Source of the DNA: Escherichia coli
GTDB taxonomy: Bacteria; Pseudomonadota; Gammaproteobacteria; Enterobacterales; Enterobacteriaceae
Assembly: GCF_030013595.1 (NCBI RefSeq)
Contig: NZ_CP122768.1
Reading direction: 5' to 3' (one strand)
Length of the DNA: 64,000 nucleotides
Under the pieces are notes generated by a model. That model saw only the letters and a list, made by a program, of their open reading frames with translations. It did not search any database and was not told the origin of the DNA. Both the position numbers and the translations under genes were made by a program. Below, one piece after another: positions 43,973-54,171 of the stretch. The number at the start of each line of letters is the position of its first letter. The first letter of the stretch is position 1.

Positions 43973-43995
43973 TTGGTCACGAGAGTATTCAAAAC
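43973..43995. repeat. distal att remnant (degenerate copy of the proL 3' end)
   Basis: TTGGTC---ACGAGAGTATTCAAAAC here compares with TTGGTCGGCACGAGAGGATTTGAACC at 54171-54196. GATTT(TT)GGTC is shared at both junctions. Confidence 0.6.
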
Positions 43996-44046
43996 ACGCC
44001 AATAACCTCTTGATTCAATTGAAGTCGAAAATTTTAAGTCAAAAAT

Positions 44047-44072
44047 CGTATAGCTTAACGTGTAGCTAAAAA
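44047..44072. repeat. 26-nt direct repeat (candidate integrase arm-type site), distal copy
   Basis: CGTATAGCTTAACGTGTAGCTAAAAA differs by 1 nt from CGTATAGCTAAACGTGTAGCTAAAAA at 54028-54053. Confidence 0.6.
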
Positions 44073-44622
44073 TGTTTGCTGCAAAAGTATACAATTTTAA
44101 CCGTTATGACTCCCTGTTATCCGTTATCAAGCTGGTGGATGATCATGGATAACCCGTTATGGGAATCCCCATATCGGCATCAGGCCCATGCCATAACAAA
44201 AACCCCATATTCGTGGGTTTTCTGTGTTGTGGCTATTCTGCCGTTGCCGTGCTGGTGGATATTTCCGGTATGTGGCTCACCATATCGGCATCACGCCCAC
44301 CAGCGCGACGCATTTTTTTAATTTCGCGGGTGTAAAAATTTGACGGGGCGGGCGGTCCTATAAGCAATGGGGGGTAGGGATTTCGATCCCCCCTCCTGAA
44401 TGCAATTTTCCGTATGTGGCTGTGCGGCAATCATACTCGTCACATGTTTTTGACAATAAAAGGCCCGACCGTGAGACTCACAAACAAAAAAGTTACGGAG
44501 AAACAGGGGATCGGGCTCGGTTGCCGCTAAATCTATTCAATTAAAAGAAGATGTCAATAGGGAAAACGAAAAAAAACAATGCTGATATTGTCATAATTTG
44601 AACAAAACCACTATATGTAGTT

Positions 44623-44853
44623 TTAGTTCATGAGGTTAGTCGCTACCAGATGCGTCAATAGTTTTTTGCTATTAATAATCCCTCTTTTTCCATCGGGAGC
44701 TTTGCACTTGTCACTACCTGGTAACTCCTGGTGGCGTTCCTGTTGCAGCACAACGGAAACAGGCGCTGAACACCTGTTAATTTTGCTTGCAGGTTGTTTG
44801 ATTTCGGCAATGCTGCGGATCATCTCCAGCATATCGGCTTCGGTGATGGTCAT
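44623..44853 (-). CDS. hypothetical small protein (76 aa)
   Basis: The ORF is preceded by an AAGGTG Shine-Dalgarno 6 nt from the ATG. I recognise no family, and it lies in an otherwise ORF-poor region. Confidence 0.35.
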   Translation of the reverse strand: MTITEADMLEMIRSIAEIKQPASKINRCSAPVSVVLQQERHQELPGSDKCKAPDGKRGIINSKKLLTHLVATNLMN

Positions 44854-44884
44854 GATTTACACCTTAGGAAATCTTAGGGGCTGG

Positions 44885-45142
44885 TTGACACTTTCCGGCT
44901 TAAGACCTTAACAAATCTTAACATCGCAGGTTGACACACTTGACACTTTTTCGCGAAAAACCTTATCAAACCTTAGCATTTCTAAGCATGGCAACTTGAC
45001 ACTTTTCGCGATTTTTTCGGCTTTTTGACGTGGTAAATCTGGCGCAAAGCCAGTAACGGCGGGGTTTACAGCGAGGTTGACACTTTTTCGCGTTCAGAGT
45101 GTAAAGTGTCAACCTGGCAAGCTGCTCAACTTGACACTTTTT
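44885..45142. repeat. iteron array TTGACACTTT(TT)CGCG (at least 6 direct copies plus 1 inverted)
   Basis: Copies start at 44885, 44931, 44940, 44996, 45077 and 45131, with one inverted copy at 45103-45112. They are interspersed with CCTTA(G/A/T) repeats and lie between the Nu1-like gene and the 76-aa ORF. Confidence 0.8.
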
Positions 45143-45146
45143 GAGG

Positions 45147-45674
45147 TCATTGATGGCCTGATTTTTCCCACTCAGCCAGGGCGTTTAGTCCGGCTTCACT
45201 CCAGTTATCCAGCTCATCGGGACAATCACCTGCAACATAGCAGAGCTCACAACGCAGCATACGAATTGCCAGCCTGGCATTTTCCCGAAAATCATACTGC
45301 TCAAAGTAATATTGCCCAGCATAATCCTCAAGGCAGATAGCACCATCATCAAGAAATTGCACTTCACAGCATAGTTCCCCGGCTGCATCCTGTACACGCT
45401 GCTGTATGTCATTGTCCGTTACTGGTGCAGGGATTTTACCGTCTCTGGCCTTAACTGCTTTCCAGAACTCGCCCCACGTCATTTCCAGCGTTCTCTCTGG
45501 CCACATTTCAGAAACGGTATCTTTTCCCTGTGCTGGTGGGCTGTTCCGCTGCTCTGTCGCTTCCACATCGATTTTTTTACCGGACATGACCACTTCGCCT
45601 TTCTCGATCCAGTCGTAAACTGTCTGGCGGCTTACGCCTTTGTGTTTGGCATATTCTGCCTTGCTCATAAACAT
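45147..45674 (-). CDS. protein with a lambda Nu1 (small terminase)-like N-terminal HTH; candidate packaging-specificity factor
   Basis: 175 aa. The N-terminus SKAEYAKHKGVSRQTVYDWIEKGEV resembles lambda Nu1 NKKQLADIFGASIRTIQNWQEQGMPV. The rest is unrecognised and Cys-rich. A good Shine-Dalgarno (GAGGGGAAG) precedes the start. Confidence 0.55.
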   Translation of the reverse strand: MFMSKAEYAKHKGVSRQTVYDWIEKGEVVMSGKKIDVEATEQRNSPPAQGKDTVSEMWPERTLEMTWGEFWKAVKARDGKIPAPVTDNDIQQRVQDAAGELCCEVQFLDDGAICLEDYAGQYYFEQYDFRENARLAIRMLRCELCYVAGDCPDELDNWSEAGLNALAEWEKSGHQ

Positions 45675-45844
45675 GACACTTCCCCTCAGACTGTATTAAT
45701 GCGCCGGAAAGCGCGTGTATTTAAATCATCCCAGGAACCGTTGAGCACCAATTAGTTGCGCGAAGTAATCGGCACCAGCGTTCCGAACAATTTCCAACTT
45801 AACGTTCTGATCATTGTTTCCTGCTGCAGGGACAATCCCACGAT

Positions 45845-52326: not shown

Positions 52327-52357
52327 CAAAAAAATAGCGACCGCAAGGGCCGCTATT
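52327..52357 (-). terminator. rho-independent terminator after the int/80-aa-ORF unit
   Basis: The minus strand shows an imperfect ATAGCGGCCC-ttgc-GGTCGCTAT hairpin followed by TTTTTTT, 5 nt after the ORF stop. Confidence 0.6.
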
Positions 52358-52361
52358 GTGA

Positions 52362-52604
52362 TTACCGCTTCCACTTCTTAGGTCGCCCACCGCATTTAAG
52401 GCTGGTGGGTCTCAGCACCTTGTCGATGCTTTCAGCCAGATTTTTCGATGCGCCACGCGAGCGCAAAAAACTGACTACCTCGTGTTTTGTGGGGGCTGTT
52501 GATTTGTCTTCCGGATCGTACGTTGACCAGAATTCACGATTTGCCATTAAGGCCAACTGAAGACCTTCACCATAGGCAGGGGATACCTTTTCATTGAAAA
52601 ACAC
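52362..52604 (-). CDS. hypothetical protein (80 aa) with a basic GGRPKKWKR tail
   Basis: GTG start with an AGGAG Shine-Dalgarno 8 nt upstream. It lies between int and alpA, and I recognise no family. Confidence 0.45.
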   Translation of the reverse strand: MFFNEKVSPAYGEGLQLALMANREFWSTYDPEDKSTAPTKHEVVSFLRSRGASKNLAESIDKVLRPTSLKCGGRPKKWKR

Positions 52605-52720
52605 CTGGATAGCTCCTTGAATTTCATGATTTGGGTGACTCCTCTCTGTATTGGGTGGGTTGTGGCGATTATACGATGGTTTAGCATGGTTTGCATCGCT
52701 TTTACTGGTTTTTTGTACAG

Positions 52721-53962
52721 TTATACGGCACGGATACCCCTTTTACCACTGGCTATGGTCACTCCAGTTGCTGCGGCCTCTACAAATTCCCCCCACCAGC
52801 GCATAAGCACCACGCGCTTTTCCAGGTAGTTACTTCGGTTATATGCTCGCCTTACCTCGTTCGTGTCCACGTGTGCGAGTGCGGCCTCGATTACGTCCGG
52901 CTCGAATCCTTCCTCGTTCGCTGCTGTACTGAATATGGCGCGTAATCCGTGAGACACCAGCACACCAGCGTAACCCATCCGGCGTAATGCAGCGTTAGCG
53001 GTCTGGCTGCTCATTGGTAGCATTGGATTTTTAAGGCTGGGAAAAACATGTTCCCTGTGTGCGCTGATTGGCTTCATGGTTTCCAGTACAGCCATAGCCT
53101 GACCGCAAAGGGGGATCACATGGTCACGGCGCATCTTCATGCGTCCGGCTGGAATCGTCCAGGTTTCGGCATCGAGATCTATTTCTTCCCAGCGTGCGGC
53201 GGCTGCTTCGGCTGGGCGTGCTACGGTCAACAGTTGCCACTCGATCAGCAATCTGGTTTGCCGTTCTATGCTGGCGACCGATAAATCGTGCATTAGCTGC
53301 GGTAGCTGTTCCGGTCGGATGGTTGGCATGTGCTTTTTGGTGGGTGAGGGAAATGCCTTGCGGACGTTAGCAGCGGTGTTGATGTCAATCAGCCCACTGT
53401 TGGCGGCAAAATCCATCACTTCATTGATGCGCTGCAAAACGCGTTTCAGTGTTTCCAGGTTGCCGCGTGCTTTAATGGGGGTGAGTATCTCAACAAAGCG
53501 GCGAGCGGTGAGGGTATCTATTGGCGTGTTTCCGATGTACGGGAATACGTATTTTTCCAGGGATCGCCAGATATCCTTAATCGTGTTGTAAGCCAGATTC
53601 TGGCCTTTTTTCATCTCGTACCAGTCCGAGGCAACTTTTTCGAACGTGTTGCCCTTTTTCCGACTCTCTGCTTCACGTTTCCGGCGTTCGTGGTCCTGTG
53701 GGTCAACTCCCTTCGCTATGAGTGACCTGTATTCATTCCGTCGTTCTCTGGCATCGGACAGGGAAACATCATTCAGCGATCCGAGGCTGATGATAGTCCG
53801 TTTTTTATCTGCCGGGCGGTAGTACGTAAAACGCCAGATTTTTGATCCGGAGGGTTTCACCAGAAGAAATAATCCTCCGCCATCCTGCAGGGTGTATTCC
53901 TTTTCCCCTGGTCGTGCGTTTTTGATCTCCGTAATAGTTAGTGGGGTGGTTTTTCGTGCCAT
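52721..53962 (-). CDS. int: P4-type tyrosine recombinase/integrase
   Basis: 413 aa. The N-terminal arm-binding region (LTITEIKNARPGEKEYTLQDGGGLFLLVKPSGSKIWRFTY) is typical of DUF4102/P4 integrases. Catalytic residues are present: R (TVARPAE), HGLRAIF and H...Y (AHVD..RRAYNRSNY). It is adjacent to the tRNA 3' end. Confidence 0.9.
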   Translation of the reverse strand: MARKTTPLTITEIKNARPGEKEYTLQDGGGLFLLVKPSGSKIWRFTYYRPADKKRTIISLGSLNDVSLSDARERRNEYRSLIAKGVDPQDHERRKREAESRKKGNTFEKVASDWYEMKKGQNLAYNTIKDIWRSLEKYVFPYIGNTPIDTLTARRFVEILTPIKARGNLETLKRVLQRINEVMDFAANSGLIDINTAANVRKAFPSPTKKHMPTIRPEQLPQLMHDLSVASIERQTRLLIEWQLLTVARPAEAAAARWEEIDLDAETWTIPAGRMKMRRDHVIPLCGQAMAVLETMKPISAHREHVFPSLKNPMLPMSSQTANAALRRMGYAGVLVSHGLRAIFSTAANEEGFEPDVIEAALAHVDTNEVRRAYNRSNYLEKRVVLMRWWGEFVEAAATGVTIASGKRGIRAV

Positions 53963-53978
53963 GTTTTTTTACTCATCG

Positions 53979-54053
53979 GTAGCTATATGCCTGGTCGTAG
54001 CTATACGGCTTTAGCTACACGCTGGACCGTATAGCTAAACGTGTAGCTAAAAA
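53979..54053. repeat. cluster of GTAGCTA(T/A)A-type repeats (candidate integrase arm-type sites), proximal arm
   Basis: The cluster reads GGTAGCTATATG, CGTAGCTATACGG, TTAGCTACACG and CGTATAGCTAAACGTGTAGCTAAAAA. The last unit is duplicated at the distal end of the island (44047-44072). Confidence 0.6.
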
Positions 54054-54103
54054 ATCCGGTTATAACCCTATCTTACCGATTCAATCCGGCGACTGAAAAC
54101 AAC

Positions 54104-54136
54104 AAAAAAGCCCGTTAATCAGTAAATTAACGGGCT
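54104..54136 (-). terminator. island-borne rho-independent terminator directly downstream of proL
   Basis: The minus strand reads AGCCCGTTAAT-ttactg-ATTAACGGGCT followed by TTTTTTG, about 35 nt after the tRNA 3' end. Confidence 0.7.
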
Positions 54137-54171
54137 TTCAATAGGTTACCGATGCTGTCCGATATTCGATT

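Follow-up and report, generated by a model that had tools for sequence, protein, structure and literature searches.

What is the 10.2-kb block that separates proL from yejO in this stretch of Escherichia coli DNA, and by which phage might it be moved? The original prediction, made on the 64,000-nt stretch analysed here (the window), described a satellite that depends on a helper phage and is similar to the Gram-negative PICIs. The comparisons below support that view, the island being colinear with EcCICFT073 and sharing proteins with it. We assign a probability of roughly 0.8 to the reading that it is a PICI of the EcCICFT073-like lineage, placed by its own integrase at the proL 3' end, packaged through a phiP27-type cos site, and equipped with a late module acting as proposed below.

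Insertion at the 3' end of proL

The block (window positions 43973-54171) is a discrete insertion at the proL 3' end, bounded by the following features:

54172-54248, minus strand: proL, tRNA-Pro(GGG), the integration target, intact, its 3' end forming the right junction (ARAGORN; Rfam tRNA, 54.9 bits; junction alignment)
43970-43990: left junction, TTTGGT common to attB, then a degenerate copy of the tRNA 3' end, CACGAGAGTATTCAAAAC (three-way alignment of the empty site with the left and right junctions)
44047-44072, second copy 54028-54053: 26-nt repeat CGTATAGCTTAACGTGTAGCTAAAAA (repeat family D13, 96% identical)
53968-54055: (T)AGCTA(C/T)A repeats clustered next to int, among them the second 26-nt copy (sequence read; repeat family D13)

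When the empty site is aligned with both junctions, the crossover falls within TTTGGT at the very 3' end of proL; the degenerate tRNA-end copy reads TGGT---CACGAGAG at 43974-43990. Of 5426 complete E. coli genomes, 3784 matched a joined-flank query without a break, and with the exact junctions aligned this bears out the earlier claim that the block interrupts the proL-yejO junction. That claim was to fail if the site was never found empty or if the block always lay within a larger prophage. Empty sites are common, the annotated copies elsewhere have yejO and proL as their immediate neighbours, and no copy examined lies inside a prophage.

The two 26-nt copies and the int-proximal cluster, where further TAGCTA repeats are visible at 53970-54055, are probably arm-type integrase binding sites. 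The 27-29-nt "att core" given for yejM-luxR PICIs (PMC6092414 Table S1) corresponds to these internal repeats. The same table already lists proL (yejM-luxR/aidA) as a PICI attachment site, with EcCIATCC25922, EcCIED1a.1, EcCI11128, EcCI11368.1, SdCI1012 and SbCISb277 inserted beside yejM and similar in size (8.5-11.4 kb).

Gene order shared with EcCICFT073

From int to the PerC gene, the island carries the following features:

52721-53962, minus strand: int, tyrosine integrase with an arm-binding domain (Pfam Arm-DNA-bind_3, Phage_int_M, Phage_integrase; NCBIfam PRK09692, 560 bits)
52362-52604, minus strand: 80-aa ORF between int and alpA (ORF list; hypothetical protein in relatives)
51987-52193, minus strand: alpA, AlpA-family regulator (Pfam Phage_AlpA, 4.5e-8)
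51486-51704, plus strand: YlcI/YnfO-type gene, the sole plus-strand gene (phrog_949, 9e-19)
50267-51400, minus strand: early operon with an Icd-like gene, two phrog_340 paralogues (121 aa and 66 aa) and DUF4222 (Pfam, PHROGs, NCBIfam)
about 51122-51400, minus strand: the Icd-like gene, within the early operon
48855-50270, minus strand: rep, replication initiator with a RepA-type AAA_25 helicase (Pfam AAA_25, 2e-44)
48537-48855, directly 3' of rep: putative replication origin, eight CCTCACTTTT iterons in both orientations (repeat search and GC)
47846-48388, minus strand: ProQ/FinO-family RNA-binding protein (Pfam ProQ, 8e-24; NCBIfam FinO/ProQ)
47562-47849, minus strand: PerC-family transcriptional activator (Pfam PerC, 2e-32)

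A terminator-like hairpin follows the 80-aa ORF (52357-52333), and two more follow PerC (47518-47443). The iteron stretch is AT-rich, with 38% GC (0.376 at 48500-48999), and CCTCACTTTT matches 14 times in the whole window against 3.45 expected; this layout agrees with the PICI origins described in PMC6092414. As the original prediction held, neither Pfam nor PHROGs revealed capsid, portal, large terminase, tail or lysis genes in the island.

The prototype Gram-negative PICI, EcCICFT073 (PMC6092414, PMC6739421), which we located at 32931-43655 of comparison locus L014, has the same order: int, alpA, an opposite-strand YlcI/YnfO gene, an Icd-like gene, small ORFs, DUF4222, a replicase with a 3' origin, PerC, a head-gene slot, a winged-HTH protein, and a cos site with a small ORF. 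Both elements measure about 10-11 kb, and their proteins are related (blastp identities of 95% for Icd-like, 73% for YlcI, 68% for DUF4222 and 53% for PerC); the island Rep, over its N-terminal 131 aa, shares 62% identity with the Pri-Rep N-terminus of EcCICFT073. By analogy with EcCICFT073 (role described in PMC6092414), AlpA may be the helper-induced activator of the island cycle. The two elements differ in integrase (only 25% identical) and att site, and also in the replicase catalytic domain, which is a RepA helicase in the island and a primase in EcCICFT073. In the head slot a split protease-like pair replaces the lambda-type capsid and decoration homologues, a 175-aa non-Rpp protein stands in place of RppA, and cos is of the phiP27 rather than the lambda type.

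The content downstream of rep had been thought unlike that of any described element. This does not hold for the ProQ/FinO and PerC pair, which likewise lies downstream of the replicase in the published EcCIRM13514; PerC is a typical accessory gene of E. coli PICIs (PMC6092414), and ProQ/FinO occupies the slot where published PICIs list the accessory gene rdgR. The uncharacterised content is limited to the DUF2213/194-aa pair and the 175-aa protein, for which alone the earlier claim stands.

A phiP27-type cos site and the likely helper

The last 1.2 kb of the left end had been described as repeat-rich and mostly non-coding. Repeat-rich it is, but not featureless, since cos, an array of repeats and a conserved small ORF are found there:

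44315-44396: cos region, with cosN GGGGCGGGCG at 44345-44354 (blastn against phages; alignments)
44623-44853, minus strand: small ORF of 76 aa, 59 aa in RefSeq copies (ORF list; annotated in ETEC1747 and A17)
44885-45141: repeat array, six copies of TTGACACTTT (AAAGTGTCAA on the gene strand)

The N-terminus of the small ORF weakly resembles that of a 93-aa ORF beside the EcCICFT073 cos (32 aa aligned by blastp, E=0.002). In blastn searches against phages, the 1.2-kb left end matched only the annotated cos site of phiP27. Positions 44315-44358 are identical (44/44) to the phiP27 TerS-side flank and cosN, while the HNH side (44359-44396) is only partly conserved. The site is single-copy in the window. 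Its 30-nt core plus flank recurs in five IMG/VR contigs, in 5/5 only beside P27 TerS, and all have the order HNH-cos-P27 TerS-TerL. No lambda or P2 cos was found in the island. Because the left end holds a phiP27-type cos, the likely helper is an HK97-like HNH/cos phage and not lambda or P2, at odds with the lambdoid or P2-like helpers suggested earlier, and we infer that a phiP27-type phage would mobilise the island.

phiP27 is a Shiga-toxin (Stx2e) phage carrying stxA2e/stxB2e. Stx2e is pig-associated, and the seven genomes with at least 80% of the island, among 5426, are all porcine ETEC. The full P27 TerS-cos-HNH prophage occurs in 18 genomes, none of them among these seven carriers, so that no resident helper stands out. 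UMNF18 and ETEC4090 contain no more than a related HNH-cosN prophage whose TerS-side flank differs.

The late module

Three genes precede the one for the 175-aa protein in the late module:

47187-47384, minus strand: small first gene, 57/65 aa (57 aa from an internal ATG; ORF list; WP_001224090.1 in ETEC6335, ETEC1747 and A17)
46563-47156, minus strand: 194/197-aa protein (phrog_6216 positions 405-544; tblastn, blastp)
45845-46498, minus strand: DUF2213 protein, 217 aa, capsid maturation (prohead) protease homologue
45147-45674, minus strand: 175-aa protein, N-terminal winged HTH (TerS/Xis/MerR class) and an unassigned alpha/beta C-terminal domain

The small first gene is 100% identical to the A17 copy and matched no family in Pfam or PHROGs. 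DUF2213 and the 194-aa protein are separate genes matching the N- and C-terminal parts of a single head-module protein of the Rac-SA53 type: the former shares 54% identity with the first 220 residues of the 430-aa Rac-SA53 protein, and residues 63-191 of the latter are 64% identical to its C-terminal domain (residues 295-423). In Rac-SA53 the gene has the portal/MuF-like genes on one side and the capsid gene on the other. The 190-194-aa family is widespread and mislabelled "NUDIX hydrolase"; we propose from the sequence match that it may be a scaffold-like or capsid-targeting domain. The DUF2213, 194-aa and 175-aa genes are all under purifying selection (dN/dS 0.1-0.24; 0.17-0.22 for the 194-aa gene), and no island protein resembles the phiP27 protease or TerS.

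The module is portable, occurring also in islands with other integrases and replicases, and two further proL islands inspected (L003 and L015) have other late modules, with either a ClpP-protease/capsid fusion and DUF1441, or DUF1441 and TerS. The cos site assorts with the proL int/att end and not with the late module; cos and late module may therefore not work together. They also point to different phage lineages, cos to phiP27 with its HK97-like heads and the head-gene homologues to Rac-SA53. We propose that the head-gene pair interferes with or remodels procapsid assembly. Other satellites with diverged copies of helper head-assembly proteins (SaPI CpmB, SaPIbov5 Ccm, P4 Sid) offer an analogy. 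The island pair differs from them in combining a maturation protease domain with a separately encoded C-terminal domain, in a lineage distinct from that of its cos.

The 175-aa gene occupies the slot of RppA in EcCICFT073 and adjoins the cos-bearing end in every relative examined. Like RppA/B/C, it encodes a small protein with a TerS-like winged HTH, just before that end and with short repeats beside it. As an Rpp homologue it was rejected, there being no sequence relationship beyond 28 HTH columns, and its C-terminal domain is alpha/beta whereas that of RppC is a helical coiled-coil dimeriser. The cognate helper TerS would be P27-type, as against lambda Nu1 for Rpp. The earlier label of "Nu1-like HTH" thus survives at the level of the fold only; the best fold match is an excisionase.

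The array repeat occurs six times here, where 1.18 copies would be expected in the window as a whole. The array is 530-790 bp away from cosN, with the phiP27 TerS-side flank on the other side of cosN. AAGTGTMAA arrays adjoin the 175-aa gene in other loci (L001, L004, L012 and L010/L011), and in Pantoea the variant TTTACAC does so; none was found in the compared loci lacking the gene, so that the fold and a site array co-occur across genera. In many genomes the gene, array and small ORF are present without the protease pair. From this association we propose the array as candidate binding sites of the winged-HTH protein, which may mark island DNA for packaging or otherwise redirect the helper terminase.

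Alternative explanations

The island might instead have lost its mobility, as a satellite in decay or a piece of defective prophage that keeps an integrase and scattered phage-like genes but no longer excises or transfers. In favour of this are the rarity of whole-island copies (7/5426 genomes), the lack of a matching resident helper in the carriers, the indels that distinguish copies near Icd and in the interval from DUF2213 to the 175-aa gene, and a pseudogene in an indel-variable region of ETEC6335. We consider this improbable: every module that a PICI cycle needs is present as intact ORFs, the late genes are under the selection noted above, and the cos core is perfectly identical to that of a live phage. 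Moreover, these modules are shuffled between many islands, integrated at several att sites, and this implies that such islands are still mobile. A P4-like satellite dependent on a P2-like helper would share the P4-type integrase architecture, the AlpA-family regulator, the Icd-like gene and a size near 10 kb, and the int/alpA/primase trio is common to P4 and PICIs (SatelliteFinder). Yet the only P2/P4 cos match, with three mismatches, lies outside the island, P4 sid, delta, psu and other capsid-size or antitermination genes were unmatched in Pfam and PHROGs, and the replicase belongs to the RepA-type helicases rather than the alpha-type primases. With gene order and proteins agreeing with EcCICFT073 instead, a P4-like identity is very improbable.

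A possible though doubtful view concerns the late module, which might chiefly be anti-phage cargo with no part in the island's own packaging. Phages of the Rac-SA53/Chronis type would be its target, their procapsids poisoned by an untethered protease and a decoy C-terminal domain, with the 175-aa protein as a transcriptional regulator or recombination directionality factor. The separate lineages and independent assortment of head-gene homologues and cos would fit, as would the appearance of Xis, Cox and RdfS among the top fold matches of the 175-aa N-terminus and the label "MerR family transcriptional regulator" on some RefSeq copies. However, PADLOC gave no match to known defence families, a Vis/Xis-like role is already filled by AlpA in the EcCICFT073-like lineage, and the distance of the array from the att core (about 0.9-1.2 kb) is long for an excisionase. 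The constant place of the 175-aa gene, in the RppA slot beside the cos-bearing end, also counts against this view.

Proposed cycle

For the island as a PICI, a helper phage would induce alpA, and AlpA would then turn on the unidirectional operon, as in EcCICFT073. Recombination in TTTGGT would excise the element and leave proL intact, and replication from the iteron origin directly 3' of the RepA-type helicase gene would yield concatemers, to be cut and packaged at the island cos by a phiP27-type (HK97-like) helper, through its terminase and HNH endonuclease. Because the island amounts to 0.24 of the 42.6-kb phiP27 genome, a full-size head would hold about four copies, unless head size is altered. 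The late module would supply a protease domain and a separate C-terminal domain, both from one Rac-SA53/Chronis-type head protein, together with a winged-HTH protein that takes the position of the EcCICFT073 Rpp and has its own AAGTGTMAA array. The element family is already catalogued in E. coli; what is specific to this element is its phiP27-type cos, the split DUF2213/194-aa head slot, and the 175-aa winged-HTH protein with its array.

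Insertion site and ends of the island

The 10.2-kb island (43973-54171) abuts the 3' end of the single tRNA gene found in the window by ARAGORN, a tRNA-Pro(GGG) gene (proL) at 54172-54248 on the minus strand. When the two 500-base flanks of the island (one ending just left of 43973, the other starting at 54172) were fused into a single query, 3784 of 5426 complete E. coli genomes contained it uninterrupted, with up to 99.8% identity, which confirms the original prediction of a discrete insertion with empty proL-yejO sites elsewhere. Alignment of one empty site with both junctions placed the crossover in TTTGGT, at the extreme 3' end of proL, and showed that the tRNA is left intact, the left end of the island carrying a degenerate copy of the tRNA end from which 3 nt are deleted. 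Excision would yield an attP junction reading ...CGATTTGGTCACGAGAG... and a restored attB. In annotated relatives, the island is flanked by yejO, yejM, yejL, and yejK, and the proL site is already catalogued, as yejM-luxR/aidA, among PICI attachment sites (attC; PMC6092414 Table S1). Islands were the only occupants of this site in the inspected copies, a selection rather than an exhaustive prophage survey. With its length of 10.2 kb, an integrase gene at one end, and a specific attachment site, the element belongs to the 8-15 kb class of discrete islands typical of PICIs. At least 80% of it was recovered in 7 of the 5426 genomes, all from porcine ETEC.

For PICIs at yejM-luxR, PMC6092414 Table S1 gives an att site core (TTTGTAGTTATACGTTTGTAGTTATACGG) that corresponds here to two repeats internal to the island:

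44047-44072, 26-nt repeat, about 75 nt inside the true left junction
54028-54053, 26-nt repeat, about 120 nt inside the true right junction

These are more likely arm-type integrase sites than the crossover, the real one being the TTTGGT of proL. A 35-nt repeat (CCGTTATGGGAATCCCCATATCGGCATCAGGCCCA) also occurs twice near the left end (44154-44188 and 44265-44299). A very similar sequence, recognized by eye and unaligned, lies near the end of EcCICFT073, the prototype Gram-negative PICI (CFT073 locus L014, ca. 43960-44000), and the repeat may be a conserved terminal element.

Gene content and relationship to known PICIs

ORF and family searches agreed with the gene layout originally listed.

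Genes of the island, from the integrase end
Minus strand, tyrosine integrase with an arm-binding domain
Minus strand, 80-aa ORF, with a terminator-like hairpin after it
Minus strand, AlpA, then an Icd-like gene
Plus strand, YlcI/YnfO-type gene, the sole gene in this orientation
50571-51129, minus strand, two phrog_340 paralogues, then a DUF4222 gene
48855-50270, minus strand, AAA_25 RepA-type helicase (replicase), then ProQ/FinO and PerC genes
Minus strand, 57/65-aa ORF
46563-47156, minus strand, 194/197-aa ORF
45845-46498, minus strand, DUF2213 gene
45147-45674, minus strand, 175-aa HTH protein

The defining features of PICIs are an att site, AlpA, unidirectional transcription, an origin 3' of rep, the lack of structural genes, and a packaging site (PMC6092414). 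The island encodes an AlpA-family regulator (Phage_AlpA domain), and all its genes except one are transcribed from the minus strand. It has its own replication initiator, followed immediately 3' by an iteron origin composed of eight copies of CCTCACTTTT in a 38% GC stretch (48537-48855). As originally proposed, no capsid, portal, large terminase (TerL), tail, or lysis genes were detected in the island with Pfam and PHROGs, which returned just a protease-like protein and a TerS-like HTH among phage structural and lysis functions. The suspected resemblance to Gram-negative PICIs is therefore well founded, every feature of PMC6092414 that can be tested on sequence being present and EcCICFT073 being colinear.

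Once located in CFT073, EcCICFT073 displayed the same gene order as the island, with protein identities of 95% for the Icd-like product, 73% for YlcI/YnfO, 68% for DUF4222, and 53% for PerC. The N-terminus of its Pri-Rep is 62% identical to the first 131 residues of the island replicase, whereas the catalytic domains are unrelated (a RepA-type helicase in the island, a primase-type Pri-Rep at L014 37242-38996), so that two kinds of replicase share an N-terminal domain. EcCIRM13514, a PICI already catalogued, likewise has paired ProQ/FinO and PerC genes downstream of the replicase, and accessory genes listed in PMC6092414 Table S1 include rdgR, as well as perC for EcCICFT073 and SbCISb277. The gene content downstream of rep, first regarded as unfamiliar, is thus familiar as regards this pair; for the late modules, no description was found. 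The proL integrase and replicase of the island occur in other strains with quite different late modules, and its late module is found elsewhere in combination with integrases, replicases, and att sites different from these, so that the family as a whole is mosaic, its modules being exchangeable. The late-module query matched up to 6 places in ETEC4079 (NZ_CP122643.1) and up to 4 in ETEC1747 (NZ_CP122722.1), and several satellites carrying this module appear to coexist within one porcine ETEC strain.

Two other satellite types were considered. Capsid-forming PICIs carry their own capsid, portal, head-tail adaptor/connector, and large terminase genes (PMC10085698), none of which was detected here with Pfam or PHROGs. 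The P4-like satellites were set aside on the same searches, which gave no match to the psu-delta-sid, epsilon, or alpha primase families, and on the absence of a P2 cos from the island. The element is a PICI, located at a known PICI attachment site and equipped with canonical early and middle genes, and it defines no new category, since its architecture, att site, and most of its genes have already been described for PICIs. It departs from characterized members in the helper type implied by its cos, in the content of the capsid-morphogenesis slot, and in a non-Rpp winged-HTH protein associated with a repeat array.

PADLOC found no defence system among ten island proteins. The tRNA was the sole Rfam match, two sub-threshold matches being attributed to chance, and this search revealed no sRNA that could partner the ProQ/FinO protein. 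The 121-aa and 66-aa phrog_340 products are paralogues with three phrog_340 repeats between them, visible in the DNA as three 37-nt repeats (50686, 50882, and 51044).

A phiP27-type packaging site

The left end of the island had been described as repeat-rich and mostly non-coding, a view that has to be revised since this 1.2 kb holds a cos site of the type found in phiP27, an Stx2e phage with an HK97-like HNH/cos system. Its one match among 50,697 phage records was the annotated phiP27 cos-site. Window positions 44315-44358 are identical to phiP27 at 44 of 44 nt, covering the 30 nt from the TerS start codon to cosN, cosN itself (GGGGCGGGCG), and 4 further nt; the HNH-side flank is partly conserved. 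This identity across cos and flank provides the island with the helper-type packaging site of a PICI. The 30-nt core was found in five IMG/VR contigs, all of them P27-type phages with HNH, cos, a P27 TerS (98-100% identical), and TerL. Related prophages with a different TerS allele have cosN and the HNH side in common with the island but not the TerS-side flank, and the island therefore copies the phiP27 TerS-side sequence specifically. Neither a lambda cosN nor a P2/P4 cos was found in the island. EcCICFT073, whose cos sequences are of the lambda rather than the phiP27 type, offers a parallel case, with lambda and phi80 as the phages that transfer it. The island measures 0.24 of the phiP27 genome, and a full helper head would accommodate about four copies, as discussed for EcCICFT073; each step of such a life cycle is extrapolated from the sequence and from the EcCICFT073 literature.

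A helper prophage inside the window was considered and rejected, the other 54 kb consisting, by the ORF listing alone, of densely packed ORFs on either side; no P27, lambda, or P2 cos was found within the window outside the island. A full P27 TerS-cos-HNH prophage is present in 18 genomes, none of which is one of the 7 whole-island carriers; strains with a P27-TerS prophage include ETEC1746, STEC276, and B7A. UMNF18, which also carries the proL island, has a P27-family prophage (L016, NZ_AGTD01000001.1 1105529-1115948, locus positions 34-4441) whose large-terminase gene is marked in the annotation as incomplete, with a frameshift. Directly adjacent to this gene is an element that encodes a tyrosine integrase of its own, two HTH proteins, a BRO-N protein, and a YlcI/YnfO protein; it resembles the helper-embedded PICIs of PMC10111431.

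For the packaging site of a sibling island (strain A17) with the same late module, no phage match was obtained apart from a probable contaminant. Two Campylobacter phage records, MG065686.1 (50127-50366) and MG065691.1 (123757-123996), each contain a 240-nt stretch matching E. coli chromosomal DNA beside dinD at 96% identity, probably through contamination or misassembly.

The 175-aa winged-HTH protein and its repeat array

The 175-aa gene occupies the position of the gene for RppA, the winged-HTH packaging protein of EcCICFT073, and its product has a winged-HTH DNA-binding domain of the lambda TerS/MerR class, as in the Rpp family. Membership in this family, defined by full-length homology to RppA/B/C including the helical C-terminal dimerisation domain (PMC6739421), was rejected. 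The blastp match to Rpp spans 25 aa, hhalign against RppA gave a probability of 31% over 28 HTH columns only, and phmmer against PDB yielded no match to RppC at E up to 1. The C-terminal domain is predicted to be alpha/beta and has no convincing structural match. No similarity was found to phiP27 TerS, to the DUF1441 protein of sibling islands, or to any PDB sequence, and a BFVD fold search with the model matched the HTH domain alone, with no full-length viral counterpart.

An array of AAGTGTMAA repeats invariably comes after the 175-aa gene. In the island it comprises six copies (44885-45141), where 1.18 would be expected in the whole window, and it lies to the HNH side of cosN at a distance of 530-790 bp. 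In Enterobacter, similar arrays adjoin homologues with as little as 36% identity, and in Pantoea the motif is a variant one; no array was seen in any examined locus devoid of the 175-aa gene. The gene, the array, and a small ORF occur in many genomes without the protease pair. A homologue is the last island gene in Pantoea stewartii (L008, 6170-9528), after genes for a Dit_like protein and 355-, 117-, and 256-aa proteins, and in Enterobacter hormaechei (L010, 7507-9597), after a KAP-family NTPase gene.

A head protein split into two genes

The DUF2213 and 194-aa proteins match the N-proximal and C-terminal parts, respectively, of the same family, phrog_6216 (545 positions). Both were found by tblastn in the same 14 phage records, in which the two parts form one protein encoded between portal/MuF-like genes and the capsid gene. 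In the 430-aa protein of Rac-SA53, a phage of the Rac-SA53/Chronis type, DUF2213 aligns with residues 1-220 (54% identity) and the 194-aa protein with residues 295-423 (64%). The island has two separate genes instead, that for the C-terminal domain coming first. Split versions of 190-225 aa occur in Escherichia, Salmonella, Citrobacter, Enterobacter, Pantoea, and Klebsiella; this spread and a dN/dS of 0.10-0.22 for the split pair argue for a maintained state rather than decay.

The DUF2213 protein has the fold of capsid maturation proteases (assemblin/T4 gp21 fold), and its catalytic His and Ser are conserved. No similarity to the L39 protease of phiP27 was found, and neither the DUF2213 protein nor the 197-aa protein had a PDB match by sequence. 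Mu and lambda have nested protease/scaffold genes. By likeness to these and to SaPI CpmB, we propose that the 194-aa protein may be scaffold-like or a decoy. The cos and the head-gene homologues indicate different phage lineages, and the two assort independently.

A possible two-part hijacking device and its implications

The late module might be a two-part hijacking device not described so far, a reading to which we give roughly one chance in four. The split head protein would remodel or sabotage procapsids, while a non-Rpp factor with its AAGTGTMAA array would redirect packaging. The first part would comprise a standalone C-terminal capsid-targeting/scaffold domain and an untethered maturation protease, both re-encoding the protease-scaffold-type head protein of a helper, and the procapsids affected would be those of Rac-SA53/Chronis-type phages. 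If this is true, such a device, together with the phiP27-type cos at the element's other end, would give a single island the means to exploit two unrelated phage lineages or to defend against them. Our literature searches returned no description of these modules, nor of a link between phiP27 and satellites.

PICIs move virulence and defence genes and block helper phages. The present element connects E. coli PICIs with the phiP27-type phages, a lineage that has an HNH-dependent cos and has yet to be studied as a helper of this family. It also brings forward candidates for capsid redirection and packaging specificity, in the form of two uncharacterized modules that are widespread and selectively maintained: the protease-like pair of split genes, and the 175-aa winged-HTH protein plus its array. 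Stx2e-converting phages from pig-associated E. coli belong to the phiP27-type lineage, so the island could influence how far Shiga-toxin phages spread, or how much phage is produced, in porcine ETEC/STEC.
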